From the NCBI GenBank assembly GCA_000002435.2, contig CM018792.1: a DNA stretch of 64,000 nucleotides; one strand, given 5' to 3'. How positions within the stretch are numbered: the stretch's first letter is position 1; each line of letters starts with the position of its first letter. The DNA comes from Giardia intestinalis (lineage: Eukaryota). This document shows positions 42,753-62,561 of this stretch, in pieces. The position numbers were made by a program, and so were the translations under genes. The notes under the pieces were generated by a model. It worked only from the letters and a program-made list of their open reading frames with translations, ran no database searches and was not told the DNA's origin.

Positions 42753-45401
42753 CTACAAGAAAAAAGCGTAAAGCTTTCCGTCATGGGTGCCACCGATGAG
42801 TGCTCCTGTGCTGGAGGCGGCTAGCCAGCCAGTGGGAGAGCGGGCTCTGAAGATAGCGGAACTGTCAAAGACTATTCCTGACGTCCGAATGTCATATATT
42901 AGAATGCGTCCTTCATCTCCGGAAACGGCGAGACCGTTGCACTTGGGAAGAAACGCTACTCGTGGATTCGCTTTTACTGCCGATACTCCACTGAATAGTC
43001 GAATTGGTTGTTCAAGTGTCTGCCGCGCATCGTACAGCGCCACTTCTCCAGCTGTCATGCCAGAAGCACTAGTAGCAAAGATGTTCTCTGTCATGGACCC
43101 TAGGCAGGTATATGCCAGGTCAGGCAAGAAGACAGAAGGGGTCCTAGCATGCGGAGACACCTCGTTGCTTATTGTAGCCACCTTCTTCATGCGCGCAATG
43201 TCAACAACGCTCAAGGTATCAGATGGACCATTCTTATCCGATCTTGAATGAGTAAGGAAGCAAACTGGCGACTTGAAGCGAGTAAAGCAGGCACCCCCAT
43301 AAATCACTGATGGGAGACTCAAAACGGTCAGCTCAGTGTACGCCGGTTCCGTACAAGAAGCGCTGTCAGAGAAGCTTCCAGACACATCATATCTGTAGGC
43401 ATAAAGTGACGTATTTGCTGCAGCCAGGCACAGGCCCTCAGTGTCACATCGTGGCCAAATAAATGAGCACCATGCTGTCTCGTGGGGAGAGGCTTTACGA
43501 GGTTCGATTGAGAGGAGTTCCTTTCTGTTGCTCGCTATTGTTCGCCACACTCCTAGCGAGGCGTTTATGCCAGGAGTCAAAAGTAACTGGGAGCTCACAT
43601 GGGAGCTAAATGATGTTATGCGTGTAGAGGGAACGATGGACATCTTAAGCTTTAATGAGGGCCCCTTTTCTGTCGATGTTTTCGTGTATAGACTTATACA
43701 GTTGTCACTGGAGAGGTAAGCCAACGTCCCATCGTCCAAAGCCTCTGCATAAATAATCGGGCTGGATGTGGAAATGACCGCTAGCTGCTTCAGCCGCGAG
43801 TACCGCTTTAAAACCTCTTCCTCTTTGCCCAAGGAAGTAAGACTGGAAGTATTGTTTGGGAGCGATACCTGCTTTTGCTTGCTCAGTTTTTCCTGCTTGA
43901 GCTTCTGCTGCTCACTCCACGGAATAGAAGACGCATATCCAGATGACCTTACCTTATTCGTTGCTATTCGCCCTGTCCCTGCAGAAGCGGTTCTCTTTGC
44001 TTGCAATGAAGAAGCGACTTGTGATGACCTGGAAGGTACACTGGGCGCTCCCAGCTTGGTTCCACGCACAATCCGAGGATGCTGTGGGTTTAGAACTGAC
44101 GTGATGGGAAGAAACCATGTGTGCCCATCACAACTCTTCTGAAAGTCGTCAAATATAAGATCATACGCTTTCGGTTTTGGAGCATAGCCAATGGATAACC
44201 TTGTAAGAAGAGAGGCGTCGGTTGTATGAGCCCGAACTGCTACCATGCGGCTATGAAACAAATAAAGTTTTCGATTAGATGCCTCAATAATATAGAAATG
44301 GCTGCATCCATCCCTCCATTCAAAGACGGAAGACAAGACACTGTATGTACCCTTGCACTCCCTGGCAAGACACATTTCTAAACTCTCCGGGTCTTGATCA
44401 TCTCGTTCCGCTAAAGCAACGTTGCTGGGAGCGAGCGAGTTTGTCGGGACACCAAAGACCCCAACGTCTGTATCAACGAAAAGGGTTGTGGCAAGCATGA
44501 CATCGGGCTCCTCCAGAAGCTCATTTCTCGGCTGCACAGAGTCACGAGACTGGCCTAGACCGGCAGTAAAGATTTTGCTGGCCCCAAGGAAATACCCCAG
44601 CGGGATCTGCTGATCTGAAAACAGTTTGAGTGAGAGCTCAGGGCCGGCCTCACTCTGTGTAACTGAAAGGGTCTGCTTGTAAGGAATCACAGTGATATTT
44701 GTGTCGTTATATGCCACGATGTGTGTTTTGTCGTACCATAGTCCTGTTGGAATAAATGACAAGTGAAGTAAGGACTTGAACTCTCCCACAGCTATAGAAT
44801 TGTCTTCTTTAGAATAAGTAAATGTGAGGGTTGCAATGGACTGGTTTTTGCAGCCTAAGATTCCAGCGTATAACCGAGCACCCGACGACGAAACGGTTTG
44901 CTTCACTATTCCCACAGAGAAGAAATTGTCCTGGCGGTTGATGTAGGTGAACGAGGAAACATACACAAAGATGTCTTCAGAAATAGCGTAGATCAACACA
45001 TCATTGAGTAAAGTGCATATTAGGAAAGCTTCGTCATTGGAGACCGCCAGACACGTCCCAGACACAGGCCTTCCAGCAAGAGGGACCTGGGTTCTTTTCG
45101 TAAGTCTAGACTCGTGCTGCTGGGTCTCTCTAGCGCTTTGGAGAGACCAAGAAAAAAGACCCAGATCAAATCCGTTGTCTGAACGGTACACCACGGCGAG
45201 GAGGCAATTTAAAGTGGAAAGGATGCAGGCCTGTGGACTCTGGCAGCCCGCTCTAAACGTGAATGGTCGCGGGAGAGCCCGTATATGAACAGCTGCCTCG
45301 TGACCACCTACGACTGCACAGACATTTTCAGCAACACAGAAGGACGTGTACGCCTTGAGCGGAAGCTCTATCAGCTTCTCCGGGCTCTGTATAATCTGCA
45401 T
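42753..45401 (-). CDS. Large WD40/beta-propeller protein (~882 aa)
   Basis: The track start at 45455 is TTG; the first ATG is at 45401-45399 (MQIIQSPEKL...). Multiple WD-like strands (GGTHDGKLYAF, LAVSGDEGRILIYDIRT, and others). Confidence 0.6.
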   Translation of the reverse strand: MQIIQSPEKLIELPLKAYTSFCVAENVCAVVGGHEAAVHIRALPRPFTFRAGCQSPQACILSTLNCLLAVVYRSDNGFDLGLFSWSLQSARETQQHESRLTKRTQVPLAGRPVSGTCLAVSNDEAFLICTLLNDVLIYAISEDIFVYVSSFTYINRQDNFFSVGIVKQTVSSSGARLYAGILGCKNQSIATLTFTYSKEDNSIAVGEFKSLLHLSFIPTGLWYDKTHIVAYNDTNITVIPYKQTLSVTQSEAGPELSLKLFSDQQIPLGYFLGASKIFTAGLGQSRDSVQPRNELLEEPDVMLATTLFVDTDVGVFGVPTNSLAPSNVALAERDDQDPESLEMCLARECKGTYSVLSSVFEWRDGCSHFYIIEASNRKLYLFHSRMVAVRAHTTDASLLTRLSIGYAPKPKAYDLIFDDFQKSCDGHTWFLPITSVLNPQHPRIVRGTKLGAPSVPSRSSQVASSLQAKRTASAGTGRIATNKVRSSGYASSIPWSEQQKLKQEKLSKQKQVSLPNNTSSLTSLGKEEEVLKRYSRLKQLAVISTSSPIIYAEALDDGTLAYLSSDNCISLYTKTSTEKGPSLKLKMSIVPSTRITSFSSHVSSQLLLTPGINASLGVWRTIASNRKELLSIEPRKASPHETAWCSFIWPRCDTEGLCLAAANTSLYAYRYDVSGSFSDSASCTEPAYTELTVLSLPSVIYGGACFTRFKSPVCFLTHSRSDKNGPSDTLSVVDIARMKKVATISNEVSPHARTPSVFLPDLAYTCLGSMTENIFATSASGMTAGEVALYDARQTLEQPIRLFSGVSAVKANPRVAFLPKCNGLAVSGDEGRILIYDIRTSGIVFDSSAIFRARSPTGWLAASSTGALIGGTHDGKLYAFFL

Positions 45402-45984
45402 AATCCGTGCTGTTTTTACCTCAAAACTTAAAATCCTTTTGTTTCTAAGGTCCAAGACACCATTCTCATAATCATAAGTGCAGCGGAATTTGAAGTTCTA
45501 TAATAAGCCTGTAAGAAAATAAAACCCCAACGTTTAAAAATACAATCCGAACCTTTACGAACTTAGCTTCATAAGGTTCGTACATAAGAAGGGAGAAAAT
45601 TTGGGAAAAAAGAACAGTCAACCAATCAGTATAAACACAAGCTTAAACTCTGTGTCTGAGTATCTGTACAATGACGACTCTCCAGTCATCGCTGATGCAG
45701 ATTGGTGTGCACATCGAATCGTCAAAGTAGAGGGCCGTACGAGAACGTTCCTAGAGACCTTGGATGTTTATTCGCATTTGCAGAAAGTTGTTGATAGAAG
45801 AGTCAAAGCAAATATTGCTGGCATTGCTGTGCGGGGTGGGACCTGGGCTGATACTCGAAGAAATGCCTGGTTACTGGGGCCCAAGGCAAGGCTTGCTGCC
45901 CTCCGTGTTGAAGCCACAGACAAGCTTCTGGAAAGGGCAGAGTCCAGGGCATCGTCTAGAAGATGCTGCACATGCTTTCACAGA

Positions 45985-48365: not shown

Positions 48366-49409
48366 ATGACAACAAAAGACATCGAAAGCGTCGTCGCAGA
48401 ATGGGATCTGGAAAGGCGCCAGAGGGAAGATATCGAGTCAATTGTGGTGGAGCTGCTCGCTGCCGCTGACGCGAAAATTGCTGATACGCATACTCCATAC
48501 GATGTTATTGCAGCTGAGTTCTTACTAGAGACTATAGCCAACGCAGTAATGCTCTCCATTCCTACCCCGTCGCCCCCGGCCGTTCCTAAACTGACCATCT
48601 GTACAACTGCGCCTGGCGTCAACGACAGCGCTGTGACCAACGCGGTCACAAAGGTCTCTGAGAATATTGCGACTAAGTCGGTCGTGAAGACGCACTATGC
48701 CTCCCGGATCCAGGTCAACCAGGCCTCTGTTCAGCTTGTCGACCCTAGTTCTGACAAGGTGAAGATAGCGTCCACCCTTGATGATGTTCCGCTGACAGGA
48801 CAGTTTGACCCTGCAACGATCAAGTTCCTTCGGCCCGCCTCAAATGCGGGGGCACGAAAGCATGCGATGGAGCGTCTCGGGAAGGATGCCAGGAACAACC
48901 GAACCAGAAACACGATAACGCAGCAGCACAGTGACAGAAAGCAAGAGATTCTCGACCTTCTCAATGTCAACACAAAGGGCTCGTATGCAGTGCGCAAGAA
49001 GAAGATTGAAGAGCTTCCAGACAACTTGTACTATGTTGTCGACTCAGCTGGAAAGATCATCGGGCTGTTCAAGAACCAACCCCCGGCACAGTTAGCGCAG
49101 ATATCCGAGATGGCTGTCAAGGCTAAGAACGCAAAGGTGGTTGGCACAAACCGCAACACAGACCTTAACGCAGACCTCCGTCACCTTTCCGAGTCAGAGA
49201 TACGCTCCGAGGCAACGTCCATGATCAAGTCACAGATTAATGATGATGTCTCGTCCATCGGCAAGTCTCTGACTACGTTCCAAAAGGACAACGTAAACGT
49301 CCTGTCAATCCTTGTTCCGTCCCAAGGAGTCATTTTCAAGGGCGATGGAAAGGTGAAGAAGGGCCCCATAGACGAGCGGGTACGGAACGGAATGCGGGGC
49401 CAGCACTGA
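48366..49409 (+). CDS. Hypothetical protein (347 aa)
   Basis: ATG verified at 48366. Uninterrupted ORF with no recognisable motifs. Confidence 0.55.
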   Translation: MTTKDIESVVAEWDLERRQREDIESIVVELLAAADAKIADTHTPYDVIAAEFLLETIANAVMLSIPTPSPPAVPKLTICTTAPGVNDSAVTNAVTKVSENIATKSVVKTHYASRIQVNQASVQLVDPSSDKVKIASTLDDVPLTGQFDPATIKFLRPASNAGARKHAMERLGKDARNNRTRNTITQQHSDRKQEILDLLNVNTKGSYAVRKKKIEELPDNLYYVVDSAGKIIGLFKNQPPAQLAQISEMAVKAKNAKVVGTNRNTDLNADLRHLSESEIRSEATSMIKSQINDDVSSIGKSLTTFQKDNVNVLSILVPSQGVIFKGDGKVKKGPIDERVRNGMRGQH

Positions 49410-49796: not shown

Positions 49797-52109
49797 TTAG
49801 TTGCTCCACATGTTTCCAAACTGTGCATAGATATCACCGCCCTCTACATCAGCAACTGCAGCAGACAGCCCCGAGAGGCTAAAACCTGTATCCTCTTTAT
49901 CAGTTGTTGCGAAGTTACCAAAATTGCTGAAAAGGAAGTCTGAATTGTTGTCAGCACCAGAGGTCCAGGAGAAGGTAGTATCGTAGGTACCACCGGTCGC
50001 AGCATTAGCTTGACGGGTGGCCTCGGCGTAGTCAGATGATAGGCGAGCGTCTCCAAAAGTTTTCGGAATGGATTCTTCTGGCTCCAGATGAAGCTTGGAG
50101 AACTCTTTGAACGCTTCATTGTTGATCAGAAAGTTGCACATTGTCGCGTCAAGATCGGCGTAGCCCTCTGTTAGCAGGTTAGCCAAAGCAGGAACTGTCT
50201 GAGGACATGAAATTGTAGTGAGGGTTGCCGAGGTGTTGTTAGAAACGTACTTGCGCTTCTCATCCATGGCTGCTTCGTCGGAGAGCTTCACGCTAATGCG
50301 CAGAAATGCTCTTGCAAAGGTTATATAGTACGTTAGCTTACTATCTCGACGCTTGAACATGGTGTAGTCACTGGACACTTCGTGCATGTCTTTTAGGAGT
50401 GTGGTCTCCTTAAATATATGCATGGAAATCTTTGAGTTGTAGTTGACGAACTCTACCAGTGGCAGCAGTACACGACTAATCACAAAGTGGAGATTGCTGT
50501 GCTCAGGAAAGCGCTTAAAAAGTGTGATCATGAAGGCAGGGATTTGAAGATTGATCAGCTTTAATATTATACTTGACGTGGTAATAACAAATGGGACGAC
50601 GGATCCGTCCGATCCTATCTGAATTGTGTCCACGAATGGTGTGTCGGAGGTCCCACCAGCGCCTGCATGAGCAAAGTTGGAGAGACACGCATATCTACTG
50701 AAGTCGAACAAATTGTTGCTTGCGTTAGCATTGGCCTCACCTGCGATCCACTCCTGAACTGGATTAATGCCGGTTCGCTTGAAGTACAGCTGATCGCGAA
50801 TGTCTGCAGTGATAGCAAGCAACCGGCCGATCATCTTTATCATGTCAAAGCACCCTATGCCCAGCGTGTTAGGAGGTGCCATGTTCATCATGTAGTTGAG
50901 GCGCTCTGGTAGAAGACTGAACAATTGGATTACACGGAAAAATGTCGGAGCGAATGTGGCCTCTAGCTCGTCAATCTCCTTTATGCCGAGGGGTGTCAGT
51001 CTTGGCTCAGTAGTCAACGAAGACGGTGTGCCACTGACTCCGCTTGATGAACTCTTTTTGCTGTCTGCCTTTGCTTTGGAGCAGGAGGCTTGTTTAGGTA
51101 TATGTGCTTCTTCGATATATCCAAGGGCTTCCGCCATACGCTTCTTGTGAACGTCCTCCGGAATCTTCGCGTCAAAGATGACCTGGCTGAGCTCGTGATA
51201 CTTTAGGGCCAAGGTCGTGACAATACTGCTAAGGGCACATATCATAACGTCACTGGCTTGGGGAAGACGGAGAAGTGAGGGTCCATGGAGGTGCGACGAG
51301 AGAACGTACTCGGCAATAACAGGTACTCTGTCGATGATAACCTTATAGAGATACGGAACCCTTTTATATAAGATCTGAGAGAGAATGGAGCTGGCAGACG
51401 TTACGCATTCGAATGGAATGACGGATTTATCAGAGGAAGTCAGAAAAGCTACGAGAGCGTAAATCGTACCCGAAGACATGGCAAGCTCGGCAATACTCTT
51501 GCATGCATCGGGGCAGGTCTCCATGGTATCAATGAGAAACTCCCTCAGTGAGTTCGTGACACAGGAGTTGACGGTGTGAGCGACCCAGGCGCGCATGTAC
51601 CCAATGTTCGCCTTTAGAAACTCCACCAATGGCATCACTCGCTTGGGAGAGAAGAGTATTGCATGGATGAGCTTGTTGAAGCCATTATAAACAAACTGTT
51701 TGCAGAGATCCCCAGGAAGAAGGGGGTCCGTCGCACCTGTGGTTAACTTAGAAATGTTCCTCGTGAGAGCCTCAAAAGGCAGTTGCAGAAGCTCATGTGA
51801 TGCAACCAGATTAGGCAGAATATCTTTGAGATTCTCGGCGCAGGAGAAGACCTCTATTGCACGCTCGGTAATCTCATTCGACTCCTTAACGTTGAAGATA
51901 ATGCGAAGAAGCTTTTTGAGTGTAGCAGGCTTACTGAAATATTCGATCAAGATGTCGGATTGGCTGCGGAGCTCAAACGTAAGGGTCTTGACCTCCAAAA
52001 GCTTCTCAAGACTGTCTGTGGCGATGAGCTGATCTATCGAGGCATCTGCCTCTGACTGATCGTAGATCGACCAATATAGAGCCTGCGACATCCCGCCCTG
52101 TCCCAGCAT
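49797..52109 (-). CDS. SAPS-domain-like protein, a possible Sit4/PP6 phosphatase regulatory subunit
   Basis: ATG verified at 52109-52107. N-terminal architecture SIDQLIATDSLEKLLEVKTLTFELRSQSDILIEYFSKPATLKKLLRIIFNVKES...KLIHAILFSPKRVMPLVEFLK parallels the SAPS N-terminal region. This is by-eye similarity only. Confidence 0.45.
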   Translation of the reverse strand: MLGQGGMSQALYWSIYDQSEADASIDQLIATDSLEKLLEVKTLTFELRSQSDILIEYFSKPATLKKLLRIIFNVKESNEITERAIEVFSCAENLKDILPNLVASHELLQLPFEALTRNISKLTTGATDPLLPGDLCKQFVYNGFNKLIHAILFSPKRVMPLVEFLKANIGYMRAWVAHTVNSCVTNSLREFLIDTMETCPDACKSIAELAMSSGTIYALVAFLTSSDKSVIPFECVTSASSILSQILYKRVPYLYKVIIDRVPVIAEYVLSSHLHGPSLLRLPQASDVMICALSSIVTTLALKYHELSQVIFDAKIPEDVHKKRMAEALGYIEEAHIPKQASCSKAKADSKKSSSSGVSGTPSSLTTEPRLTPLGIKEIDELEATFAPTFFRVIQLFSLLPERLNYMMNMAPPNTLGIGCFDMIKMIGRLLAITADIRDQLYFKRTGINPVQEWIAGEANANASNNLFDFSRYACLSNFAHAGAGGTSDTPFVDTIQIGSDGSVVPFVITTSSIILKLINLQIPAFMITLFKRFPEHSNLHFVISRVLLPLVEFVNYNSKISMHIFKETTLLKDMHEVSSDYTMFKRRDSKLTYYITFARAFLRISVKLSDEAAMDEKRKYVSNNTSATLTTISCPQTVPALANLLTEGYADLDATMCNFLINNEAFKEFSKLHLEPEESIPKTFGDARLSSDYAEATRQANAATGGTYDTTFSWTSGADNNSDFLFSNFGNFATTDKEDTGFSLSGLSAAVADVEGGDIYAQFGNMWSN

Positions 52110-52186
52110 ATTAAAAGTGCACCAAAATACTTTTTATCCTCAGAACAGGGACTTTAGTTTTTTAAAGTAAGTGTCAAACACTAAGC

Positions 52187-55100
52187 ATGATCAATATGGT
52201 CCCCGACTCTCTCTTCTTGCGCATCGTCCAAGGATCGGTGTTGCTAGCGTCGGAAACTAAAGGCTGTGCCCTCAAGTCTCTTCCTATAATTTGCAATGAA
52301 ATTGTCTGCGCAAGGTGTCGGCGTGTTTCTATCCTTGTACGTTCATACAGCTGCGGGCACTGCCTTTGCCTGGAGTGCTCTCCTTTAAGCAACCTGATTT
52401 GTGTTTGCTGCAAAGACTTCATCCAAGACAGCGTAATGTTAGTGTCGCCGGTCGACAGACTTCTCAGTGCGCTGAATGCAGCTATCCAGTGTCCGCACAA
52501 TAAGAGCTGTCGGGCATATTATAGTTTGTCTGCCTATTTGATGCACCTCCACACTGCCCATTATTCTAGAGCATATCTTGCTGACTCTTCGTCACAGAAA
52601 ACAGCCACGGCTATAGCCCCTTTAGAAAATGGGCGCCCTGGTCATGAGATGATACTTGTTGATAGCCAGTCTCCACAGGCGGTGGAGTCTGTTATCGAGC
52701 TACTTTGCACCACTCCGTCCACAGAAAATCTAATGGATGACAGCAAGGCTCTTTATCAACTACAGATAGGAGACAGCGTATTCACTGGCACTCCAGAGGC
52801 ATTACAGAATGACTTTGCCAGGATTGAGGAAGCCATTACCAAATGCTCTGTCTTCTCTCGAAAAGAGTACCAATTCATCGTAGAGAAGACCAGCAAGGCG
52901 TATACCTCCGATGGCGTTCAACAAGGGAAGGCGCTCAACTTTAACATACAGCAGCTTTTTCGGTGGCATATCTATCACTTAGCTGAGCTACCAAATGAGC
53001 TGCAAAAAACCAAGGTCTGCGCGACACTTACTTCTGTTAACTACACACCCCAGTTCTCACATCTTTTCGTCAACTTTATTTGTCAGATGCCTTCTCTCAA
53101 AAGCCTTATCATTGATAACGAAACTTTCCATTTCTCTATATCGACAATCATACAGCTCCAGAATAAAGCCGTACACCTGCGTGAGCTATATATATTTAGT
53201 TGCCATTTTGACATCGACCTTAATATGCTGAGGGAGCTCCGGACTGTATGGCTGCCAACACTAACCACACTGGTCATAGATTTTTCCGTACTCACTAAGG
53301 CGTTCTCTGGCACCTATATATCTATGCTCTCCACCCTTACCTTCATGTACCTCTCAGATTTCATGGGACATGACTACTTAGATTATAGGGCGACAGCCGC
53401 TGCTCCAGGAAAGCGGCAGGGCAAGCAGGGTAGCCTATTGTCAAATCTTTTCTTTAAAAAGCACAGCAGCCCCAGCCCCAAGGACAAGGAAGATAAGAGG
53501 TATAAGCCTTTTGTTTTACAGAAAATAGAGCGGTCTAGCATTCTTTTGAAAAGCGTTTCTGAGAAGCCAAAGACATCTGGAGCCAAGGCACGGGCACTCC
53601 CAGTTCCTATTGCATATGCATCTTATAACCATTCTTCTTCTCGTGAAAACTCTGCCCGTACCAGCGATTGTTCATGCGACAATAACTCCTTCGACAGCAG
53701 CAATGCCCCAAACATATTAGAGGACATCAGATTGAGCGCAACAAGCCCACTAATGATACTCAACTCTTATCACTCGCTTCTCTGCCAACGCTACGGCACA
53801 ACCCTCGGCTTAATCCACTACCCCATCTCCTCGGATCTACCCTTCCTGGGTGCTTGGGGCGAAGAGCCCTCTGGGTTTTTCGGGCTGGTCTTTGATGGGG
53901 TTTCATATGATATCTCCACCGTGGCGCTTAAGCTTATGGAGGACACTGCAATTGAGCCACTGATCCCCTTGGGGGCATTTAGAACCTCTAAGCCCCTCAA
54001 TATTTCATGTCAAGGAGAAGATGGTAAAGGTAAGCGCAAAGAAAAACGAGGACGTCATGAAAAGGGGCAAGACAGCAATCATCTTGCTAAGCACTCCCTC
54101 GCTTATCTGTTCTATACACCCTCTTTTGTTCCTTCCGGCACAGTGACCTTTACGGATTTCTGCAAGTCTTTCACTCCTGAGTGCTTGAATCTCGCTCTTC
54201 TTCTTTTTATATGCAGGTATGATGTCTCGCTGGAACATGTGCGGGTATTAGTGCTTAACTTATCCGAAACCTTAAGTTACAGAAGAAACATTCTTGATTA
54301 TGTGGTCAAGTCGTTGGCCCTGCGTAGTAACGCAGATGTAGAACAGATCCTTGAGTATCGGACAAAGCTCTCGTTTATATCTCGTAGAGATGAGCCTCCA
54401 CCTAAAGGTAGTGAGGCCTCTTTATCTCCTCAATGTGACCCGGACGATTCCACAGGTTATGATGAAAAAGTCGCCTTCTTTCTAGATTCCTTGGTTGCGT
54501 TACTGCCTTACTTGTATAGGATACGGGAGATAAAACTGGGTCCACGCTCTTCAAACATGTCCCTCCTTCTGCCCCCATACAACGGAGCCATTTATGTCTC
54601 TCTTTTGAGGCTGATATTTGTTGCATCGAGACGCCTAATTTCTATTCATCCAGCCATTAATTACATACTCCCTCTTCTCACTGGTGTAGAGCGCTTCAGA
54701 ACGATTGACGTGTTTTACGCCCACGTAAGGTCCGTCTATGAAATGATACGTGGTGAGTATTTTAATACTCATTATCACACGCACACATCTCTCCTGGAAG
54801 ACGGCAAGAAGATCGGAGACCTTGAGATGACAAGCTTAATTGACGATGATCCCAATTGCACAGAGTCACCAGGGGGGACCTTTAATAGTCTATGCAACAT
54901 CACTATCATGACACCTGGTGGGAAGGGCCTGGTTTATGGCAATGAAATTGATGAGGTTCACGTGTCTAGACCCTTTCGGCCTTTCAAATACTCAGTCTCT
55001 TCATTCGACTTTCAGTATGAGATAGAGTCAACCCTACCGCCTGTTCATCCCCAGCAATTGGTAGACTTATATGGACACTCTGGAGGAAGCCTGAAAACTA

Positions 55101-58100
55101 TAGATTCACTAGCCGACGAAACTTATATCTTCTCACACCTGCACCGATTGCTTCAATTGATGCCTCAATCCAACTTTTGTTTTCTTGATTTGCTTCCTCT
55201 CTGCCCGCCCCGCACCGTCGTGTATTGTCTGCAACTTATTAAAGAAGGTAGTGGGTCGTTTTCCTGCTCATCCTTCAACGCCATAGAGATGCTTTCCATT
55301 CCGTGCTCTAAGTTCTTTCTACTTGATACCGTAACAGATCCCACTGTCGTGCTGCTCGATACCTTACAAGAGACTATAGGATATAGAAGGTCTGGGGCCG
55401 GAAACAAATCTGATTCAACTTCTCATAAGCAAAACCGCTATTACAGCTTTGTCAAGTATAAATGTATGCTCGACAAATCTGTCTATGCACAGTCTTTGAT
55501 GGCTCAACACAGATTCATTCGCCATGAGCGGCGTGTCAGACAGCAATACAAACCTTCCATTGTGACCTTATCAAAGCCCCTTGTACTCAACAATTCCTAT
55601 GTCCATTTCTTCTTTAATATAACGCCGAACAGGATTGAAAACTTGTATATGGGACTACGGGCTTTTAACTCAAATAGAAAGCAAAGCGTGGAACAGGTCG
55701 ACTCCTTCAGCATCGACGCTTCTAAGTATATAGCGGAGATAATCAGCAGATTTATTTTGAACTATAGTGACCTTGATTTGCTGAGCTCTGTATGCATCTC
55801 CTCTCCCCTATTAGGAAGGACCATCCAGGAGGGGCATGCATCTAACTTGGATGCTGACGTATCCAATGACAATTCTCTTGTCAATGATGATCTGGCCAGT
55901 CCAATAAAGAAGGAGGTCACTAGAGGTATCCCGGATCCAGCAGACGCTTCTGTTACTCCGGATGAAGCTAAGGACAGTGCTCAGGCACTACCTAATGTGC
56001 TTCCACCTCGACTCCCAACAGCTTCTGCCTCTGCTGTTCCAGCACAGTCTTCTGCAAAAGTCTCAGAAGAAAATAAGAGTAAGCACTCTGACAACGATCC
56101 TTGCTGCTTCGTTGAATCATGCTTGTGCTCATGCGCTGTCCACCAGTCATCTTGCATCTGTACTGGTGGCACAGAGTTCTCGTCTTTAGTCGCTATCCGG
56201 CTTATTTCGTTAACACTATTAAACGTCGATGGCCTGCTATATTCCGATGTTAATCTAATCAATAAAGCAATCTCTGTTAAACTATTACGGCTATTATCGA
56301 AAGATCTAGACTCGCTGCTGCCCACGTATAATACCATGGGATCTCCAAACAGTCGGGGGTATATGTCCTCGAGTCACACGTGTGTAGGTGTGTTTGAAAA
56401 GTATCTAGAAGAGAGTCCTTCACACTTCACAGAACTAGTCACTACGATAGATCGCTTTCTATCCATGCTATTCAGTATTCCTGCACTACATACGGATTCT
56501 ACAATCCTAAATATGATTCTTATGCAACGCAATGCACTGTTTTCACAAGAGTCTTTTCAAGTCCAGAAGGCTCTAGTGTCCGCTCGAGGCACTAAAGATA
56601 AGAGTTCGCAAAAGCAAACCGTGGAAGAGCTCTCACCTGTATCGTGGAGGGTTCCTCGACTGGGACTGCAGTTTGCGCTCAATTTGAAGGGAACGCGCTT
56701 TTCTATTGATTCGTCAGCAGTCGGTACCCTCTCTGAAGTTAAGTCCCAGGTCACAAATACCACAGCGTGTACTTACACTAATTCAATTATAACCATTATC
56801 AAGCGAAGAGATGCGCCAGAGCTTGATATTGATGAGTCTGCACATATAGTTTTCAAGGATCATCCTGCGCCAAAGATCCACACGCTTGACATTCCTTCTA
56901 TTGATGGACTGAGCATAATCACTGCTCTTCACAACGAAGAAGAAGCATGTGCTTCAATCATGGAATCCCCTTGTGCTCAGCAGGCTTTGGCAGAGTCGCT
57001 TTTAGATGCTGGTGGGCCACTTATTGACAAGGAGGCGGTCTTTCTTCAGGACCCCAGTATAGAGTTCCCAACTGTGCTACCCGAAGACTCGCCTTACCAG
57101 GTGACTCCAAATCTCAGGAGCTACGTGGCGTCTCAGCGCCCTGTGGCTCTTCTAACGATCTGCAAGCCTTTATTATACTACTACATGATCTTTAAAGTGC
57201 TTATAGGAGAAAGCTTAAAAAAAGGCGAGTCTTTCTCTCCATTTGACGGGCAAGGAAATACTATTCTTATCGATTCACCTAGCTGCTCTCTTTCAGACCT
57301 TATTGTTCTTCCAATTGGAGGTGCGTCGTTTAAGCCTAACACATGTAGCATTTTCAGCATTTGCAAATCAGCAATACTCACACAAAACTTATTTAGGTGG
57401 CCTTCTCAGGCGGATCTGAATGTGCTAGATGTCCCGAAGCGTCTGAGTACGAAGTACCGATTGCCACAGAACAGCTCTAATCTCAGTGAGCACTCACACA
57501 CTAGCATAGATGCATATCCTTCTGATAACACAGAGGAGATCATCGTGTCTATCTATTTTGCTTATCAACTGCTCTATACTCTCTACAAACGGCCTCCCAG
57601 CACCACCGCACAGCATTTCTGCCTAAAGAAACCCAAGATTGCTCTAATCTATGGATCTGGAAAGTTGTTCAAGTGTGTAGACACCGTTATATCAGCTAAA
57701 TTGCTAGCATTCCTGCTCACGCTCCTTGCCACTGGCGTGCTGACAGACGTCATAGTAGACTCTGACGTTCTCCTACGCTACTTCCCAACTTCCATGGCAT
57801 ACAACGCTTTTATTCTCAACGGATCCATAGTCTCTAAGCTGTACAGGAATGGAAGCCTTGTTTTAGGATGGGATGCTGTTCGAGAGGGTGTTGATATTCC
57901 CTTTGCACTGTACTTGCAGCTTTTCCATGAGATTGGCACCACTAAGCTATCGGCAGAAAGCACTAAGCCTCTCACGTATCTAGACCTGAGTGGCACGCTT
58001 ACAACTGTGCAATCCCATAGTATCTATGACTATCACAACTACTCTGAGTCTCAGTTTGCCGAGTTTCTCAAGAATATTTCCACCCTCGATCAGACTATAG

Positions 58101-58747
58101 GGTTTCGGACGCTCATTCTTCCCACAAAGGTGCTTTCCCTCTCTGACCTTAGAAGGATCTATCGCCTTGCAGATATTGTATCCACTTCGCTTGCATGCAC
58201 GCGACTGCACAATATTGTATTCTCTAGTGTTTGCAGCATCTTCAAGCTGGTCGATGATGGACCAGAGGCAAATGCCGAGCTGCCCGCGAACCAATTCAAC
58301 CCACGTACCCAGATAAGGTCCCTATTTGCACTAAAACAAAACAAATGCTCAACCCTACACGTTTACAATAGAAACTGGAAGGACGCTATATCTTTCTTAA
58401 TCCACGTAGGCTCCAAATCCAAAGCACTATTTACCAGAGTGTGCACGCTAGACTTTTCTCCTCCAGAAGATGACTCGGGAGACAAATCTGTGGTCATATC
58501 CGGGTTGTTTGATCAAACAGTTTCATCATTAGTACTCCAGCTGATATCACTGTGCATAGGCGTCGATAGGCTTGTAATACCGCCACCCTCGGTGAGCGAG
58601 GAAAGGGAGTCTGATATTCAAGTGCTCAAGAAGTGGGTAGAAAAAGCTAACGAAATGAAGAAACTGCAAGAGGTGGTTCTCAATCCTCCAAACAAAGATA
58701 TAGCCTCTGAGCTGAGGCAATCTTTTTGCCATTTGTGCATCGGTTAA
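52187..58747 (+). CDS. Giant (2186 aa) protein with an N-terminal C3HC4 RING finger, a putative E3 ubiquitin ligase
   Basis: ATG verified at 52187. RING residues: VCARC...(11 aa)...CGHCLCLEC...(7 aa)...CVCC fits C-x2-C-x11-C-x-H-x2-C-x2-C-x7-C-x2-C. The remaining ~2100 aa have no recognised domains. Confidence 0.65.
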   Translation: MINMVPDSLFLRIVQGSVLLASETKGCALKSLPIICNEIVCARCRRVSILVRSYSCGHCLCLECSPLSNLICVCCKDFIQDSVMLVSPVDRLLSALNAAIQCPHNKSCRAYYSLSAYLMHLHTAHYSRAYLADSSSQKTATAIAPLENGRPGHEMILVDSQSPQAVESVIELLCTTPSTENLMDDSKALYQLQIGDSVFTGTPEALQNDFARIEEAITKCSVFSRKEYQFIVEKTSKAYTSDGVQQGKALNFNIQQLFRWHIYHLAELPNELQKTKVCATLTSVNYTPQFSHLFVNFICQMPSLKSLIIDNETFHFSISTIIQLQNKAVHLRELYIFSCHFDIDLNMLRELRTVWLPTLTTLVIDFSVLTKAFSGTYISMLSTLTFMYLSDFMGHDYLDYRATAAAPGKRQGKQGSLLSNLFFKKHSSPSPKDKEDKRYKPFVLQKIERSSILLKSVSEKPKTSGAKARALPVPIAYASYNHSSSRENSARTSDCSCDNNSFDSSNAPNILEDIRLSATSPLMILNSYHSLLCQRYGTTLGLIHYPISSDLPFLGAWGEEPSGFFGLVFDGVSYDISTVALKLMEDTAIEPLIPLGAFRTSKPLNISCQGEDGKGKRKEKRGRHEKGQDSNHLAKHSLAYLFYTPSFVPSGTVTFTDFCKSFTPECLNLALLLFICRYDVSLEHVRVLVLNLSETLSYRRNILDYVVKSLALRSNADVEQILEYRTKLSFISRRDEPPPKGSEASLSPQCDPDDSTGYDEKVAFFLDSLVALLPYLYRIREIKLGPRSSNMSLLLPPYNGAIYVSLLRLIFVASRRLISIHPAINYILPLLTGVERFRTIDVFYAHVRSVYEMIRGEYFNTHYHTHTSLLEDGKKIGDLEMTSLIDDDPNCTESPGGTFNSLCNITIMTPGGKGLVYGNEIDEVHVSRPFRPFKYSVSSFDFQYEIESTLPPVHPQQLVDLYGHSGGSLKTIDSLADETYIFSHLHRLLQLMPQSNFCFLDLLPLCPPRTVVYCLQLIKEGSGSFSCSSFNAIEMLSIPCSKFFLLDTVTDPTVVLLDTLQETIGYRRSGAGNKSDSTSHKQNRYYSFVKYKCMLDKSVYAQSLMAQHRFIRHERRVRQQYKPSIVTLSKPLVLNNSYVHFFFNITPNRIENLYMGLRAFNSNRKQSVEQVDSFSIDASKYIAEIISRFILNYSDLDLLSSVCISSPLLGRTIQEGHASNLDADVSNDNSLVNDDLASPIKKEVTRGIPDPADASVTPDEAKDSAQALPNVLPPRLPTASASAVPAQSSAKVSEENKSKHSDNDPCCFVESCLCSCAVHQSSCICTGGTEFSSLVAIRLISLTLLNVDGLLYSDVNLINKAISVKLLRLLSKDLDSLLPTYNTMGSPNSRGYMSSSHTCVGVFEKYLEESPSHFTELVTTIDRFLSMLFSIPALHTDSTILNMILMQRNALFSQESFQVQKALVSARGTKDKSSQKQTVEELSPVSWRVPRLGLQFALNLKGTRFSIDSSAVGTLSEVKSQVTNTTACTYTNSIITIIKRRDAPELDIDESAHIVFKDHPAPKIHTLDIPSIDGLSIITALHNEEEACASIMESPCAQQALAESLLDAGGPLIDKEAVFLQDPSIEFPTVLPEDSPYQVTPNLRSYVASQRPVALLTICKPLLYYYMIFKVLIGESLKKGESFSPFDGQGNTILIDSPSCSLSDLIVLPIGGASFKPNTCSIFSICKSAILTQNLFRWPSQADLNVLDVPKRLSTKYRLPQNSSNLSEHSHTSIDAYPSDNTEEIIVSIYFAYQLLYTLYKRPPSTTAQHFCLKKPKIALIYGSGKLFKCVDTVISAKLLAFLLTLLATGVLTDVIVDSDVLLRYFPTSMAYNAFILNGSIVSKLYRNGSLVLGWDAVREGVDIPFALYLQLFHEIGTTKLSAESTKPLTYLDLSGTLTTVQSHSIYDYHNYSESQFAEFLKNISTLDQTIGFRTLILPTKVLSLSDLRRIYRLADIVSTSLACTRLHNIVFSSVCSIFKLVDDGPEANAELPANQFNPRTQIRSLFALKQNKCSTLHVYNRNWKDAISFLIHVGSKSKALFTRVCTLDFSPPEDDSGDKSVVISGLFDQTVSSLVLQLISLCIGVDRLVIPPPSVSEERESDIQVLKKWVEKANEMKKLQEVVLNPPNKDIASELRQSFCHLCIG

Positions 58748-58760
58748 GATGCCTATGGGC

Positions 58761-60257
58761 TCATTGGAAAAGAATATTTAGAACATATTCAAGATTACCA
58801 CCGTATTGAGAAAGCAACTGAAGGACTTCTTCGTCTCTTCCATAGATTCCCATTGAATGAACCTCATCGAGCTCTTTGGTGAATCGTTGACGAAGCTGGT
58901 CTAGAGTAGAAGAAAAGCTGTTTTCTGATTGGGTACGTGGCTGACTCATTTGTCTATTATTACTAGTGCTAGATGTCCCCGTGTTCAGATAGCGATCCAT
59001 GACACTTGATAGCAGGTCAGGGTTGTTAAGGAGCTCTGTCACATAAGGAGAATTCCCGAATTGCTGTCTAATCATGTGCTGAAATAGAGGGCTATTAAAC
59101 TGTTGCCTGATCAGCTCTGGGTTTCTCGCCATCTCACGAAACATCTCTGCCATCATGGGATTGGACCTGATAAGGTCCATCATCGCATCTGGATTTATGG
59201 CACCAAAGCCCCTGGAGCCCAGCCCGCCATCTTGAACGGTTGGGGGTGGAAAGATTGGCCCCTCAACGATCTCATTCTGCAACATCTGAGAGTATGTCAT
59301 TGGAAAACCTGACTCCGAGAAGCGCGGATTGGTTCGTCCAAGAGTATACGAAAATAGACCTTCCTGGGATGCAGCGTTGAATAAGTTAGTGAACAGCGAA
59401 TTGCTCTCGCTGTTGAATAGGTTCTGCAAATATTCGTAAGCCCTAAGGCTGTCTGCACGCTGCTCCTCCGTCGGCTCATCCGCATCTTGCGACCTGTTCA
59501 ACCCAAATAGGTCTATCGGAGGGCGCTCCATCGACTGGAGGTTGGCCTGTAGGCGATTCATATCATGGCGCAGACGTTCAAGCATGGCAGCGCCACCCGG
59601 CGTTGTCGACATTTGAGTGATGGAGCTATCCACGTCGCGCAAAGCAGCCTGAAGCTTATCGGGGTTGCACATTAGTTCAGTAAACATTTCAATTGCCTCG
59701 GGGCTCTGCATATGTGCCGCAAGCTCTGGGTTACTCTGGAGCATCTCTCGCATCATAGGACTGTTGATAATGTGTTGCCTAACGAAGTCCTTGTTACCCA
59801 ATAAGGATCTAACCATAGGATTTCCCGAGAGTAGAGAAAATACAGAGTCCATAGAATTCATGTTAGCATTAGAAAATAAGTCTCCCGGGGCGGCTGGGAA
59901 CTGTGGCTGTTGCTGTTGCTGCTGTGGCTGTGATTGAGGGGCGGTTGACTGAAAAGGCGCGGGTTGCTGAGTTTGCTCAGCAGAAACCGGCGGTGCAGTC
60001 TGTGCTGGCGTCGGGACCGCGATCTTTGCTTTCTTTACCGATATGTGGATAACACTACCGCTAGAAATCCCAAAATGACTGAGAGGCTTGGAACCAACAA
60101 GCATCTGTCCGCTGTAAATAAGACGCACCAAAGATGGGTCGACAGACAGTTTCAAGCCAACCTGGGTGCGTAAATCATCAACAAGAGCAGTGTCCGGCAC
60201 AGAAAGCTCGAAGTCGACGCTCTTGTCCAGGGGGTTCTTGATGCATAGGTCTAACAT
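58761..60257 (-). CDS. Ubiquilin/Dsk2-like UBL-UBA shuttle protein
   Basis: The track start at 60275 is TTG; the first ATG is at 60257-60255. N-terminal UBL (…VDFELSVPDTALVDDLRTQVG…LIYSGQMLVGSKPLSHFGISSGSVIHI). Central STI1-like repeats (NPMVRSLLGNKDF…NPELAAHMQSPEAIEMF). C-terminal UBA (LDEVHSMGIYGRDEEVLQLLSQYGGNLEYVLNILF). Poly-Q tract. Confidence 0.75.
   Translation of the reverse strand: MLDLCIKNPLDKSVDFELSVPDTALVDDLRTQVGLKLSVDPSLVRLIYSGQMLVGSKPLSHFGISSGSVIHISVKKAKIAVPTPAQTAPPVSAEQTQQPAPFQSTAPQSQPQQQQQQPQFPAAPGDLFSNANMNSMDSVFSLLSGNPMVRSLLGNKDFVRQHIINSPMMREMLQSNPELAAHMQSPEAIEMFTELMCNPDKLQAALRDVDSSITQMSTTPGGAAMLERLRHDMNRLQANLQSMERPPIDLFGLNRSQDADEPTEEQRADSLRAYEYLQNLFNSESNSLFTNLFNAASQEGLFSYTLGRTNPRFSESGFPMTYSQMLQNEIVEGPIFPPPTVQDGGLGSRGFGAINPDAMMDLIRSNPMMAEMFREMARNPELIRQQFNSPLFQHMIRQQFGNSPYVTELLNNPDLLSSVMDRYLNTGTSSTSNNRQMSQPRTQSENSFSSTLDQLRQRFTKELDEVHSMGIYGRDEEVLQLLSQYGGNLEYVLNILFQ
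59901..59936. repeat. Imperfect (CTG/TTG)n trinucleotide repeat encoding the PQSQPQQQQQPQ tract of ubiquilin
   Basis: The run ctgtggctgttgctgttgctgctgtggctgtgattg is read directly on the plus strand. Confidence 0.5.
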
Positions 60258-60317
60258 TTTAAAATGAAAAGCCAAAATTTGAACCGTATGAACCTAATGC
60301 GGTCAGTGTTCGTCGGT

Positions 60318-61310
60318 CTATTGAAGATCCCACATTCGCAAAGACTCAGAGCTGGGGTATGACGATGTGTCTTGTTTTTCAATAAGGTCCAATTGCCCAG
60401 TTCGTGTAAGTCCTAATAAGCAGCAGCCCGACACTGCATCAGCAACGTTGATGCAAAAGGAGGGTGTCACGATGAAGTCTTGATAGACGCATGCGAGCGT
60501 AGTGATTGCGTTGGTAGGAAACCGTGTGGTACTGTGAGCAATAATCCCTTTACTTATGTCGATAATGTAGAAGCAGCCAGCATAATTCCCGATGCCAGAA
60601 ATTACGATCAATAAGAACTCATATGGCAAAAGTACGTGATTATAAATTCCGCTCAATTTGGGCAGAAGCCACTTGCGGGCCGGCGTTAAAGTAATGCTAA
60701 TCCAGCGGGCATCGACGGGGTTATGCCTGTTGTATACAAATTCCCAGAGATCGCTAAAGGATTTCTTTCCGTTTGTTCCCCCGTGCAAAAAGACGCGGTC
60801 GTTAGCAACAGCCATTGCGTGCCCGTATCGTCTCGACGGCCTTTGCGTTTCCGCTCTTTGCAACTCGACAACAGTTCCCTCGTGGAGATCGACTATGTGT
60901 GTATCATTTAGGATGTCAGTTAATATTGTCCGTCCTCCAAAGATCAGCAGGTGTGTATCAGAAAGGAGTGCAATAGCATGCTCCCGCCGTGGCAAGTGAG
61001 GGGCGGCGACGGCCCGCAATGCAGTGCCAGAAAATATCAAAAGATCGCCCAACACCTTCTTCTCCTGCCTGTTGTACCCTCCATGAATGACTGCAATCTT
61101 TCCATTGCACGCAGAGGCTGTTAATATGCGGTTCCGTAGCAGTGGCGCACGCGCATAAAGAACAAACCGAAGCTCCCCGACAAGTGTGTAGTAAATCTCA
61201 TTGTACACTGTGGTGATGAATATGCGATGGTCAATGCTGAACATCTCCCCTTGAGACTCCGCGAATACACGTTCGTGCGTCTTGATCAGGCTATAAGGAA
61301 CGGGCTCCAT
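60318..61310 (-). CDS. Kelch-repeat beta-propeller protein
   Basis: ATG verified at 61310-61308. Repeated Kelch signatures (AVIHGGYN, LLIFGGRT, RVFLHGGTNG, DLWEF). Confidence 0.7.
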   Translation of the reverse strand: MEPVPYSLIKTHERVFAESQGEMFSIDHRIFITTVYNEIYYTLVGELRFVLYARAPLLRNRILTASACNGKIAVIHGGYNRQEKKVLGDLLIFSGTALRAVAAPHLPRREHAIALLSDTHLLIFGGRTILTDILNDTHIVDLHEGTVVELQRAETQRPSRRYGHAMAVANDRVFLHGGTNGKKSFSDLWEFVYNRHNPVDARWISITLTPARKWLLPKLSGIYNHVLLPYEFLLIVISGIGNYAGCFYIIDISKGIIAHSTTRFPTNAITTLACVYQDFIVTPSFCINVADAVSGCCLLGLTRTGQLDLIEKQDTSSYPSSESLRMWDLQ

Positions 61311-61412
61311 GAGCCACCAATTTTTGTCACTTTTGTTACCTTGTTACGGTTGATAGTATCTACGAGATTTACTACTGTGCGAGAGCAATCTCTCATTTGT
61401 TTCTTGCTAGGG

Positions 61413-62561
61413 TCAGCCGTCTATGGATTGAATTGGTTGCCATTTCTCAATGGGTCTACGACAGATCGGGCAGTCCCTTCGATTCATATCCACAAGCCTG
61501 TTTGAGCACTCTACACAGGCACACTTGTGGCCACATGGCAAGCACTCCATTGTACAGCAAGCGTCAAGACAGATGGAGCATTGCCCCAGCTTGTCCTCCT
61601 GACCTTTATACTTCTTCTCCAGAAGAAATTGAAGACCGTTCCCGGCCAGCAGACTCATGCACTCCTTGTTGTCTAATTGCTTGGCTATCTGATAGGGAGT
61701 TACCCCAGCAACGTTTTTCATGTCGTATTCGCGTTCAATTAATAGCTTAATGGACTCAATGGACCCCTTCTGCGTTGCAAACATGAGCGCGAACCAACCA
61801 TCGGGCCGTGACAACCGAGCCTCAGCATCCAGAAGCTCGCGTACGCACTCATGCTTATTGGCAAGAGCTGCACGCATGAGCGCTGTGAGACCGTTGGAGT
61901 CAGTCAGGGTGCTTTCCTTCTGGAGTAACAAGGGTATTACATTGGAGTTTCCATGGGAGGCTGCAAACATCAGCGCAGTCAAGCCGCAATTATCCTGCCG
62001 CCCACCATACTCCTCCAGATACGCCGCGACCTCATCTCGATCGCCCTTACACGCAGCTTCCATAAGCGGCGTCAGCCCCATTGCTTCCTTCTCCAGTGCC
62101 AATAGCTTTTCAACCAGTTCCGTGTTCTTAATGAAGATAGCGAAGTTAAGGGCGCACAATTTGGTTGTGGTGGTCAGACAGGCCTCCGTATCTTTAAGGA
62201 GGTCAACGATGCTTCCGTGCTTATAGACAGTGGCGTAGATAAGAGCGGACCACCCGTCCTTGTCCTGCATACGTGCCTCCTTCTGCATGAGCAACTTTGC
62301 CGAGTTATAGTTCCCTAGGCGAGCAGCATGCATAAGTGCCGTGCGCTTCATGGCATCTCTCATCCCGGCCTCGTGCTCAAGAAGTAAAGGAATAACGTCA
62401 GATGAGTCTCGCATGGCTGCAATAATGAGGGCCGTGTTGCCCACACTATTGACGGAGCCGGCCTTATCTATATGATTTTTAACATTCGCCACGTTATTGT
62501 GAGCCGCAGCAACCATAAGACTGGTGTCCCCTAGAAGCTCCACATATCTGGGCTGTGCCAT
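61413..62561 (-). CDS. Ankyrin-repeat protein with a C-terminal C3HC4 RING finger (E3 ligase-like, XB3/MIB-type architecture)
   Basis: ATG verified at 62561-62559. About 9 ankyrin repeats (TALMHAARLGNYNSAKLLM...GLTALMFAASHGNSNVIPLLL, and others). C-terminal RING CSICLDACCTMECLPCGHKCACVECSNRLVDMNRRDCPICRRPI. Confidence 0.8.
   Translation of the reverse strand: MAQPRYVELLGDTSLMVAAAHNNVANVKNHIDKAGSVNSVGNTALIIAAMRDSSDVIPLLLEHEAGMRDAMKRTALMHAARLGNYNSAKLLMQKEARMQDKDGWSALIYATVYKHGSIVDLLKDTEACLTTTTKLCALNFAIFIKNTELVEKLLALEKEAMGLTPLMEAACKGDRDEVAAYLEEYGGRQDNCGLTALMFAASHGNSNVIPLLLQKESTLTDSNGLTALMRAALANKHECVRELLDAEARLSRPDGWFALMFATQKGSIESIKLLIEREYDMKNVAGVTPYQIAKQLDNKECMSLLAGNGLQFLLEKKYKGQEDKLGQCSICLDACCTMECLPCGHKCACVECSNRLVDMNRRDCPICRRPIEKWQPIQSIDG

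Follow-up and report, generated by a model that had tools for sequence, protein, structure and literature searches.

Can a protein of 2186 amino acids (aa), in which a short N-terminal Cys/His cluster is the part that resembles a known domain, be a ubiquitin ligase, and what would the rest of its sequence be for? The question is raised by GL50803_17431, a gene of Giardia intestinalis WB (assemblage A) that lies in a 64,000-nucleotide stretch of contig CM018792.1 (assembly GCA_000002435.2), called the window below, and whose database name is 'hypothetical protein'. An earlier note, made from the sequence alone, had proposed a giant ubiquitin ligase (E3) with a C3HC4 RING finger in its first ~90 residues and no recognizable motif in the remainder. 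The present analysis demonstrates that GL50803_17431 encodes a real, constrained protein, and its N-terminal ligand pattern makes a function as ubiquitin ligase plausible.

A real gene with two constrained halves

The single uninterrupted open reading frame (ORF) of 2186 codons described in the earlier note was confirmed at the position given in Table 1. The corresponding 99%-identity protein cluster includes the 2186-aa hypothetical protein GL50803_0017431 (XP_037902040.1, UniProt D3KGZ8). The upstream in-frame stop is only seven codons away from the ATG, and the initial methionine M1 is kept in the orthologs, whereas M4 is not. Orthologs of equal length were found in other G. intestinalis assemblages, with identities of 75%, 72%, and 69%, so that the comparison comprises four assemblages, the window sequence included.

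The Nei-Gojobori ratio of nonsynonymous to synonymous substitution rates (dN/dS) is 0.077 between assemblages A and B and 0.065 between A and the most divergent assemblage, values that are to be read with the saturation of synonymous sites in mind, several windows being too saturated for any ratio. All 150-codon windows with a computable ratio gave at most 0.19, with the exception of aa 1201-1350 (Table 1), and the region of both zinc-finger motifs described below (aa 36-130) gave 0.06. The exceptional segment is the sole one that combines identity of ~40% with insertions and deletions, and is probably a disordered, fast-evolving, indel-prone linker. Since it alone evolves in this manner, the protein appears as two constrained halves, one of aa 1-1200 and one of aa 1350-2186, with this linker in between. 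A Cys-rich patch in this region (CCFVESCLCSCAVHQSSCIC, 56093-56167, aa 1303-1327) was considered as a third zinc site and dropped, as the other assemblages have a shorter version of it with little conservation. Conservation is highest in the block aa 1501-1650, which had no Pfam or PDB match and is mostly coil, at very low confidence, in the AlphaFold2 (AF2) model.

The N-terminal RING-type finger

The Cys/His cluster at aa 41-75 has the ligand pattern C41-x2-C44-x11-C56-x-H58-x2-C61-x2-C64-x7-C72-x2-C75 (spacing 2/11/1/2/2/7/2), which is unique in the protein and satisfies the RING-HC spacing rule C-x2-C-x9-39-C-x1-3-H-x2-3-C-x2-C-x4-48-C-x2-C. The C3HC4 pattern was never obtained in 5000 shuffles of the whole protein; when only the Cys-rich first 140 residues were shuffled, it arose twice in 5000 trials. 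All eight ligands are invariant across the four assemblages, when DNA upstream of mis-started gene calls is counted, and two additional cysteines within the finger, C59 and C74, are invariant as well. The RING ligand pattern is thus both non-random and conserved.

Comparison with profile libraries pointed in the same direction at marginal scores. The one Pfam match common to all four orthologs is the zf_RING-like family PF25080 (E=0.1; its 13 bits fall short of the cutoff of 27). In a profile search of aa 1-140 against PDB, RING domains of E3s accounted for five of the eight best matches, with ligands in register; in particular, the alignments with ML-IAP, TRIM21, cIAP1, and parkin all run through the RING ligands. 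In UniProt, the assemblage-B orthologs are labeled 'RING-type domain-containing protein'. From these similarities, aa 41-75 are predicted to adopt a divergent RING fold, which we consider likely.

Two gene calls on Logan contigs, of 2078 and 2095 aa, proved to be start-codon miscalls with intact in-frame RING-coding DNA upstream. Automated calls (L001 3001-9237; L002 3001-9288; L003) begin the ortholog at an internal Met and drop the RING, and in L002 (2733-2900) and L003 a spurious 55-aa minus-strand ORF is called over the RING-coding DNA. As the RING is lost from the miscalled starts, domain censuses built on such calls would miss it.

A second invariant finger and the basic cluster

Downstream of the RING-type finger, after a gap of 26 residues, lies a second zinc-finger-type motif (Table 1). 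All four of its ligands and most of the surrounding segment (NAAIQCPH..C.R.YYSLSAYL.HL..AHY) are invariant across the assemblages, and its profile (aa 84-140) matched no Pfam or PDB family. The combination of a C3HC4 RING with a C-P-x4-C-x11-H-x4-H finger ~25 residues further on resembles the layout of SIAH/TRAF-type E3s, and the spacing of TRAF/Sina-type fingers is compatible with this pattern. Nevertheless, a SIAH/TRAF identity was rejected as unsupported: neither the finger profile nor the N-terminal profile retrieved any SIAH or TRAF chain at E<=10, a BLASTP comparison with an approximate SIAH1 sequence was insignificant (E=0.26), and, unlike these E3s, GL50803_17431 has no MATH or Sina substrate-binding domain detectable by Pfam.

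A basic cluster in the N-terminal half resembles a nuclear localization signal (NLS). Its residues K614, K616-R621, and R623 are invariant in the four assemblages, although the enclosing 50-aa window is merely 58% identical, and as a candidate NLS it may direct the protein to the nuclei. The claim of the earlier note that the protein has only an N-terminal RING and no other motif therefore holds in that no family was found in the body, but it overlooked the second finger and this basic cluster.

The body of the protein

The ~2050-aa body could not be placed in any known family. Pfam searches at E<=10 yielded no family for the full protein and, for eight tiles, no body match beyond one chance match; the searches of the full protein, the N-terminus, and the tiles taken together gave the marginal RING-like match and two chance matches. 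PDB sequence searches with the whole protein and with profiles of aa 1-1200 and aa 1320-2186 found nothing outside the RING. A regular-expression search detected no P-loop/Walker A (with a loose pattern too), Walker B, IBR, or HECT-like motif, no heptad-like window indicative of coiled coil was found, and self-BLAST revealed no internal repeats. Beyond aa 75 the only CxxC pair is CHLC at aa 2181. The Pfam, regular-expression, and heptad scans thus bear out the earlier statement that signatures of HECT, IBR, helicase, and coiled coil are absent. No known family was found either, the remote-homology checks with Pfam tiles and PDB profiles having given no placement.

Structure prediction was of limited use. 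AF2 models of two tiles have a mean predicted local distance difference test score (pLDDT) of 28 and 37, a very low confidence at which no fold is assignable; such values are to be expected of alignments with just 3-4 sequences that are 70-77% identical to the query. Within these models, four strand-helix units of leucine-rich-repeat (LRR)-like appearance, with strands at aa 278, 306, 333, and 361, form the best-scoring part of the N-terminal tile (pLDDT ~47-50), and the underlying sequence contains such segments as LKSLIID.., LRELYIF.., and LTTLVID... Long helical stretches were modeled, likewise at low confidence, at aa 655-860, 979-1190, and 1330-1465, and the C-terminal region aa 1818-2175, with its strand-helix units, reaches pLDDT 50-70 in places. 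LRR proteins of the RNI-like/CC type have tandem strand-helix units of 24-29 aa with the pattern LxxLxLxxN/C. The strand-helix periodicity of these models suggests a repeat scaffold, if weakly so for an LRR. However, no tile matched a Pfam LRR family, and an LRR regular expression was not enriched (7 matches versus 4.7+/-2.1 in shuffles). The Foldseek search of an AlphaFold tile proposed in the earlier note returned nothing significant: for the C-terminal tile against PDB, the best match had E=0.039 and the template-modeling (TM) scores were at most 0.12, which, given the poor model, is not meaningful.

One hydrophobic segment, aa 1839-1857, is the only one with a Kyte-Doolittle mean above 2.0 and is conserved in the orthologs. 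AF2 sets it as a helix inside the C-terminal beta/alpha region; it could be buried there or anchor the protein in a membrane as a single span.

Distribution across lineages

An exhaustive HMMER search of 1.84e9 representative sequences with the aa 1-1200 profile retrieved G. intestinalis only, namely one ortholog and two frameshifted fragments. The latter (P0037 and P0038) seemed divergent from their bits per position, but proved to be frameshifted assemblage-A fragments. Word-indexed searches that used the whole protein or the full-length alignment gave the same G. intestinalis-only set, and JGI metagenomes, scanned with a C-terminal and a full-length alignment, yielded no relatives. In these sequence searches, no homolog of the body could be detected beyond Giardia, and the lineage specificity that the earlier note suspected is upheld.

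The ortholog search in related protists, also proposed there, succeeded in part. The Logan contig L004 (SRR25288549) contains the last 128 codons of an ortholog of the giant gene, convergent with an ortholog of the adjacent ubiquilin-like gene (51% identity); as this arrangement is the same as in the window, the family reaches at least one more divergent Giardia-like lineage, probably a distinct Giardia species. In contrast, the locus of Spironucleus salmonicida has no giant RING ORF beside its ubiquilin gene. Base composition varies strongly among the lineages that have the locus, the GC content being 38.9% in L001 (ERR3333382), 44.7% in L002, and 50.3% in L004 (GC3 ~58-60%), against 47.3% in the window.

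Comparison with known ubiquitin ligases

The finger of GL50803_17431 is most similar in form to IAP/TRIM-type RINGs (PF13920, PF00097; ML-IAP/BIRC7 4auq, TRIM21 6s53), with which it shares the C3HC4 spacing, the 7-residue second loop, the CGHxxCxxC core, and a basic residue after the last Cys. It differs from them in lying under every curated threshold, in lacking C-P-x-C, and in having a basic residue or Met at the contact with the ubiquitin-conjugating enzyme (E2). Moreover, the finger is N-terminal, whereas those of the IAP type and of the Giardia ankyrin-RING proteins are C-terminal, and no BIR, B-box, or coiled-coil partner accompanies it. The ankyrin-RING E3 family of Giardia has about 30 genes (PMC7029713), and one member is encoded close to GL50803_17431. 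Its RING belongs to the same C3HC4 class and has the same CGH.C.C.ECS core, but it follows ankyrin repeats, while GL50803_17431 is about six times longer and has no ankyrin repeats. No paralogy between GL50803_17431 and this family is detectable.

Listerin/Ltn1 and RNF213, to which the protein had been likened in the earlier note, are similarly very large and have one RING, the bulk of their sequence lying outside the catalytic module. The analogy goes no further. In listerin, HEAT/ARM repeats and an RWD domain precede a C-terminal RING and the N-terminal domain is conserved, and RNF213 has a dynein-like AAA core, whereas GL50803_17431 has an N-terminal RING, no match to a repeat family or any other, and no P-loop, Walker B, or AAA match in Pfam. 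No homology to either protein was detected, and the associated quality-control role is speculation. Similarly, there is no RING1-IBR-RING2 triad, as neither an IBR match in Pfam nor an IBR-like Cys pattern was found, and no HECT domain was found when the full protein and the C-terminal tile were searched with Pfam.

Catalytic competence and alternative interpretations

A number of results weigh against a catalytic RING in GL50803_17431. None of the models PF00097, PF13639, and PF13920 matched the first 140 residues of the four orthologs at E<=10, and no RING model of Pfam reaches significance for the finger; the C3HC4 RING of the earlier note thus stands as a unique, non-random, invariant pattern and fails as a match to the PF13639/PF00097 hidden Markov models (HMMs). 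The PDB profile matches are all below threshold (ML-IAP, E=0.22; TRIM21, 0.32-0.91; cIAP1, 0.69; parkin, 6.5). In the N-terminal AF2 tile, pLDDT is ~22-26 over aa 1-90 (~23 at the RING), and the RING region has no secondary structure. The gene is missing from the 2020 Pfam-HMM inventory of ~71 Giardia RING E3s (PMC7029713), and its identifiers do not occur in the searchable full-text literature, where no experimental data on it were found. At the prospective E2-binding surface, the position of R43, which is Lys or Met in orthologs, is aligned to Ile in TRIM21 and to Val in ML-IAP, and V73 (Ile or Thr in orthologs) follows ligand 7 in place of the usual Pro.

In established RING:E2 structures, these Ile and Val residues are core E2 contacts. 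A basic residue at this first contact position is known from RINGs without E2 binding, for example BARD1, so that with Arg, Lys, or Met there catalytic E3 activity is no safe inference. On the other hand, K76, replaced by R76 in assemblage B, lies opposite the Arg that follows the last Cys of TRIM21, at the 'linchpin' position of active RINGs. The atypical contact residues together with the retained basic linchpin leave catalytic competence uncertain. The earlier proposal of a giant E3 candidate is therefore kept for its RING-type pattern and in-register RING matches, and qualified by the E2-contact residue and the failure of the RING HMMs.

On balance, we rate at about even the chance that GL50803_17431 is a genus-restricted, giant, single-subunit RING-type E3 with an orphan body. 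Its N-terminal zinc module, formed by a divergent short-loop RING-HC of IAP/TRIM-like spacing and a C2H2-type finger, would recruit an E2 charged with ubiquitin or a ubiquitin-like protein (UBL); the body, with its helical segments, LRR-like repeats, and C-terminal beta/alpha repeats, would be a scaffold that binds substrates and partners; and the basic cluster might send this giant protein to the nuclei. Sequence comparison and models are the basis on which we infer a cross-brace fold, binding of E2, ligase activity, a role as scaffold, and transport to the nuclei.

The E2-contact residues and the missing Pro after ligand 7 could also be understood if the module were a true RING fold without catalytic function, serving dimerisation or protein binding, as do those partners in heterodimeric RING pairs that bind no E2; the giant protein would then be a structural or regulatory scaffold and no E3 by itself. 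The divergence that puts the finger below every RING HMM is consistent with such a role, and so are the helices that AF2 places directly after the RING (aa 88-131), because helices flanking heterodimeric RINGs form the dimer interface. However, Lys or Arg is retained at the linchpin-like position after C75, the canonical hydrophobic contact is not used by all active RINGs, and no partner RING protein was identified; we consider this explanation rather unlikely, though well ahead of one in which the cluster is no RING at all. In that case, it would be another small zinc-binding or Cys-rich module that fits the permissive C3HC4 rule, and the protein would be unrelated to ubiquitin. The sub-threshold scores at the family level and the lack of a fold in AF2 would agree with this, and the invariant C59 and C74 leave the ligand assignment ambiguous. 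Yet the whole-protein shuffles never yield the pattern, the top PDB matches are RING domains of E3s in particular and align at ligands 1-8, the CGHxxCxxC core equals that of the Pfam-validated RING in the ankyrin-RING neighbor, and UniProt calls the orthologs RING-type, all of which makes a non-RING cluster improbable.

Compatible with the E3 reading, and a possibility to which we give somewhat less than an even chance, is that the orphan body is a known repeat fold, such as an LRR/RNI-like horseshoe or an ARM/HEAT solenoid, that has diverged past detection, so that the protein would be an ordinary E3 of RING and repeats, with an LRSAM1-like logic, and no novel architecture. Proteins of Giardia are generally very divergent, and the strand-helix units with periods of 27-28 aa (aa 278-390) and 32-46 aa (aa 1818-2175), as well as the long helical stretches, point this way, but no Pfam repeat family was found on any tile, the LRR expression and self-BLAST gave no sign of repeats, and Foldseek, although run on a poor model, retrieved nothing. 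That the body is instead a new architecture without relatives elsewhere, and the protein the founder of a Giardia-genus-specific family of giant RING ligases, perhaps acting with its syntenic ubiquilin-like neighbor or, by way of the invariant KRKEKR cluster, in the nuclei, appears doubtful.

Genomic context

The features of the locus are collected in Table 1. Genes in the window are densely packed, with long intron-free ORFs on both strands. A divergent spacer of 77 bp separates GL50803_17431 from the minus-strand gene 49797-52109 (-). Giardia promoters are short and AT-rich, and the AT-rich stretch in this spacer is probably the initiator/promoter region of GL50803_17431, as judged from its composition and position. 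Other long ORFs nearby, 49797-52109 (-), 42753-45455 (-), and 48366-49409 (+), are likewise without a Pfam match at E<=0.001. As large orphan proteins are common in the window, the unassigned body of GL50803_17431 is less significant.

Table 1. Features of the GL50803_17431 locus (positions in the window)
Feature	Position	Strand	Description
AT-rich stretch tttagttttttaaagtaag	52154..52172	not assigned	15-33 bp 5' of ATG, within the 77-bp spacer; read from sequence
CDS GL50803_17431	52187..58747	+	2186 aa plus stop, single exon, uninterrupted; ORF list and translation
Divergent C3HC4 RING-type finger	52307..52411	+	aa 41-75; C41, C44, C56, H58, C61, C64, C72, C75
Second zinc-finger-type motif	52490..52561	+	aa 102-125; C102-P-x4-C108-x11-H120-x4-H125
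Four strand-helix units, LRR-like, low confidence	53018..53356	+	aa 278-390; period 27-28 aa; AF2 N-terminal tile
Basic cluster GKGKRKEKRGRHEKG, NLS-like	54020..54064	+	aa 612-626; K614-x-KRKEKR-x-R623
Variable linker	55787..56236	+	aa 1201-1350; ~40% identity vs 70-90% elsewhere, gapped; dN/dS 0.30-0.34
Most conserved block	56687..57136	+	aa 1501-1650; 83-91% identity; dN/dS 0.02
Parallel beta/alpha repeat region, low confidence	57638..58711	+	aa 1818-2175; ~10 strand-helix units 32-46 aa apart; AF2 C-terminal tile
Hydrophobic helix LLAFLLTLLATGVLTDVIV	57701..57757	+	aa 1839-1857; Kyte-Doolittle 19-residue mean 2.32
C-terminal segment kept in divergent lineage	58436..58741	+	aa 2084-2185; matches L004:1818-2201(-), 41% identity, E=7e-30
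Ubiquilin-like UBL-STI1 protein	58761-60275	-	neighbor of GL50803_17431
Kelch-repeat protein	60318-61310	-	neighbor of GL50803_17431
Ankyrin and zf-C3HC4_3 RING protein	61413-62561	-	neighbor of GL50803_17431; RING passes Pfam PF13920, E=7e-10

Four consecutive genes of ubiquitin-system type, of which GL50803_17431 on the plus strand is the first, occupy 52187-62561 of the window. The order of the four genes is kept in other assemblages. The giant and the ubiquilin-like gene are arranged tail-to-tail, with spacers of 11-17 bp (13 bp in the window and 11 bp in L004). Given the ~70-80 RING genes of Giardia, this grouping could be due to chance. For the ubiquilin-like protein of Giardia, a UBA domain was detected by Pfam neither in the window nor in L004 (271-1803). 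Its C-terminus (EVHSMGIYGRDEEVLQLLSQYGGNLEYVLNILFQ; 58764-58940 (-)) resembles a divergent UBA, and the Spironucleus ubiquilin ortholog gives a weak UBA match.

Implications

Previously, GL50803_17431 was known from its annotation as a hypothetical gene and from the RING-type flag on its orthologs in UniProt. The present analysis adds that it is a real, constrained protein of two-half architecture with a second invariant finger, that its RING-type finger fails the RING HMMs and has an atypical E2 surface, and that by exhaustive search the protein is restricted to Giardia, with one divergent syntenic ortholog. Many large lineage-restricted hypothetical proteins are present in Giardia, and no result for GL50803_17431 indicates a new mechanism; it is therefore a reasonable candidate for tagging and biochemistry rather than a surprise. 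Nevertheless, the strong constraint on the orphan body (dN/dS ~0.07) implies that it must have some specific role.

To our knowledge, the ubiquitin system of Giardia is reduced and has no anaphase-promoting complex/cyclosome (APC/C). If the body were indeed a new architecture, a giant E3 of its own would have arisen in a parasite whose ubiquitin system is reduced. If the RING is active, GL50803_17431 would be another E3 missed by the HMM-based inventory (PMC7029713), parasite-specific and without a host homolog, and threshold-based censuses of RING proteins would undercount them in very divergent protists.

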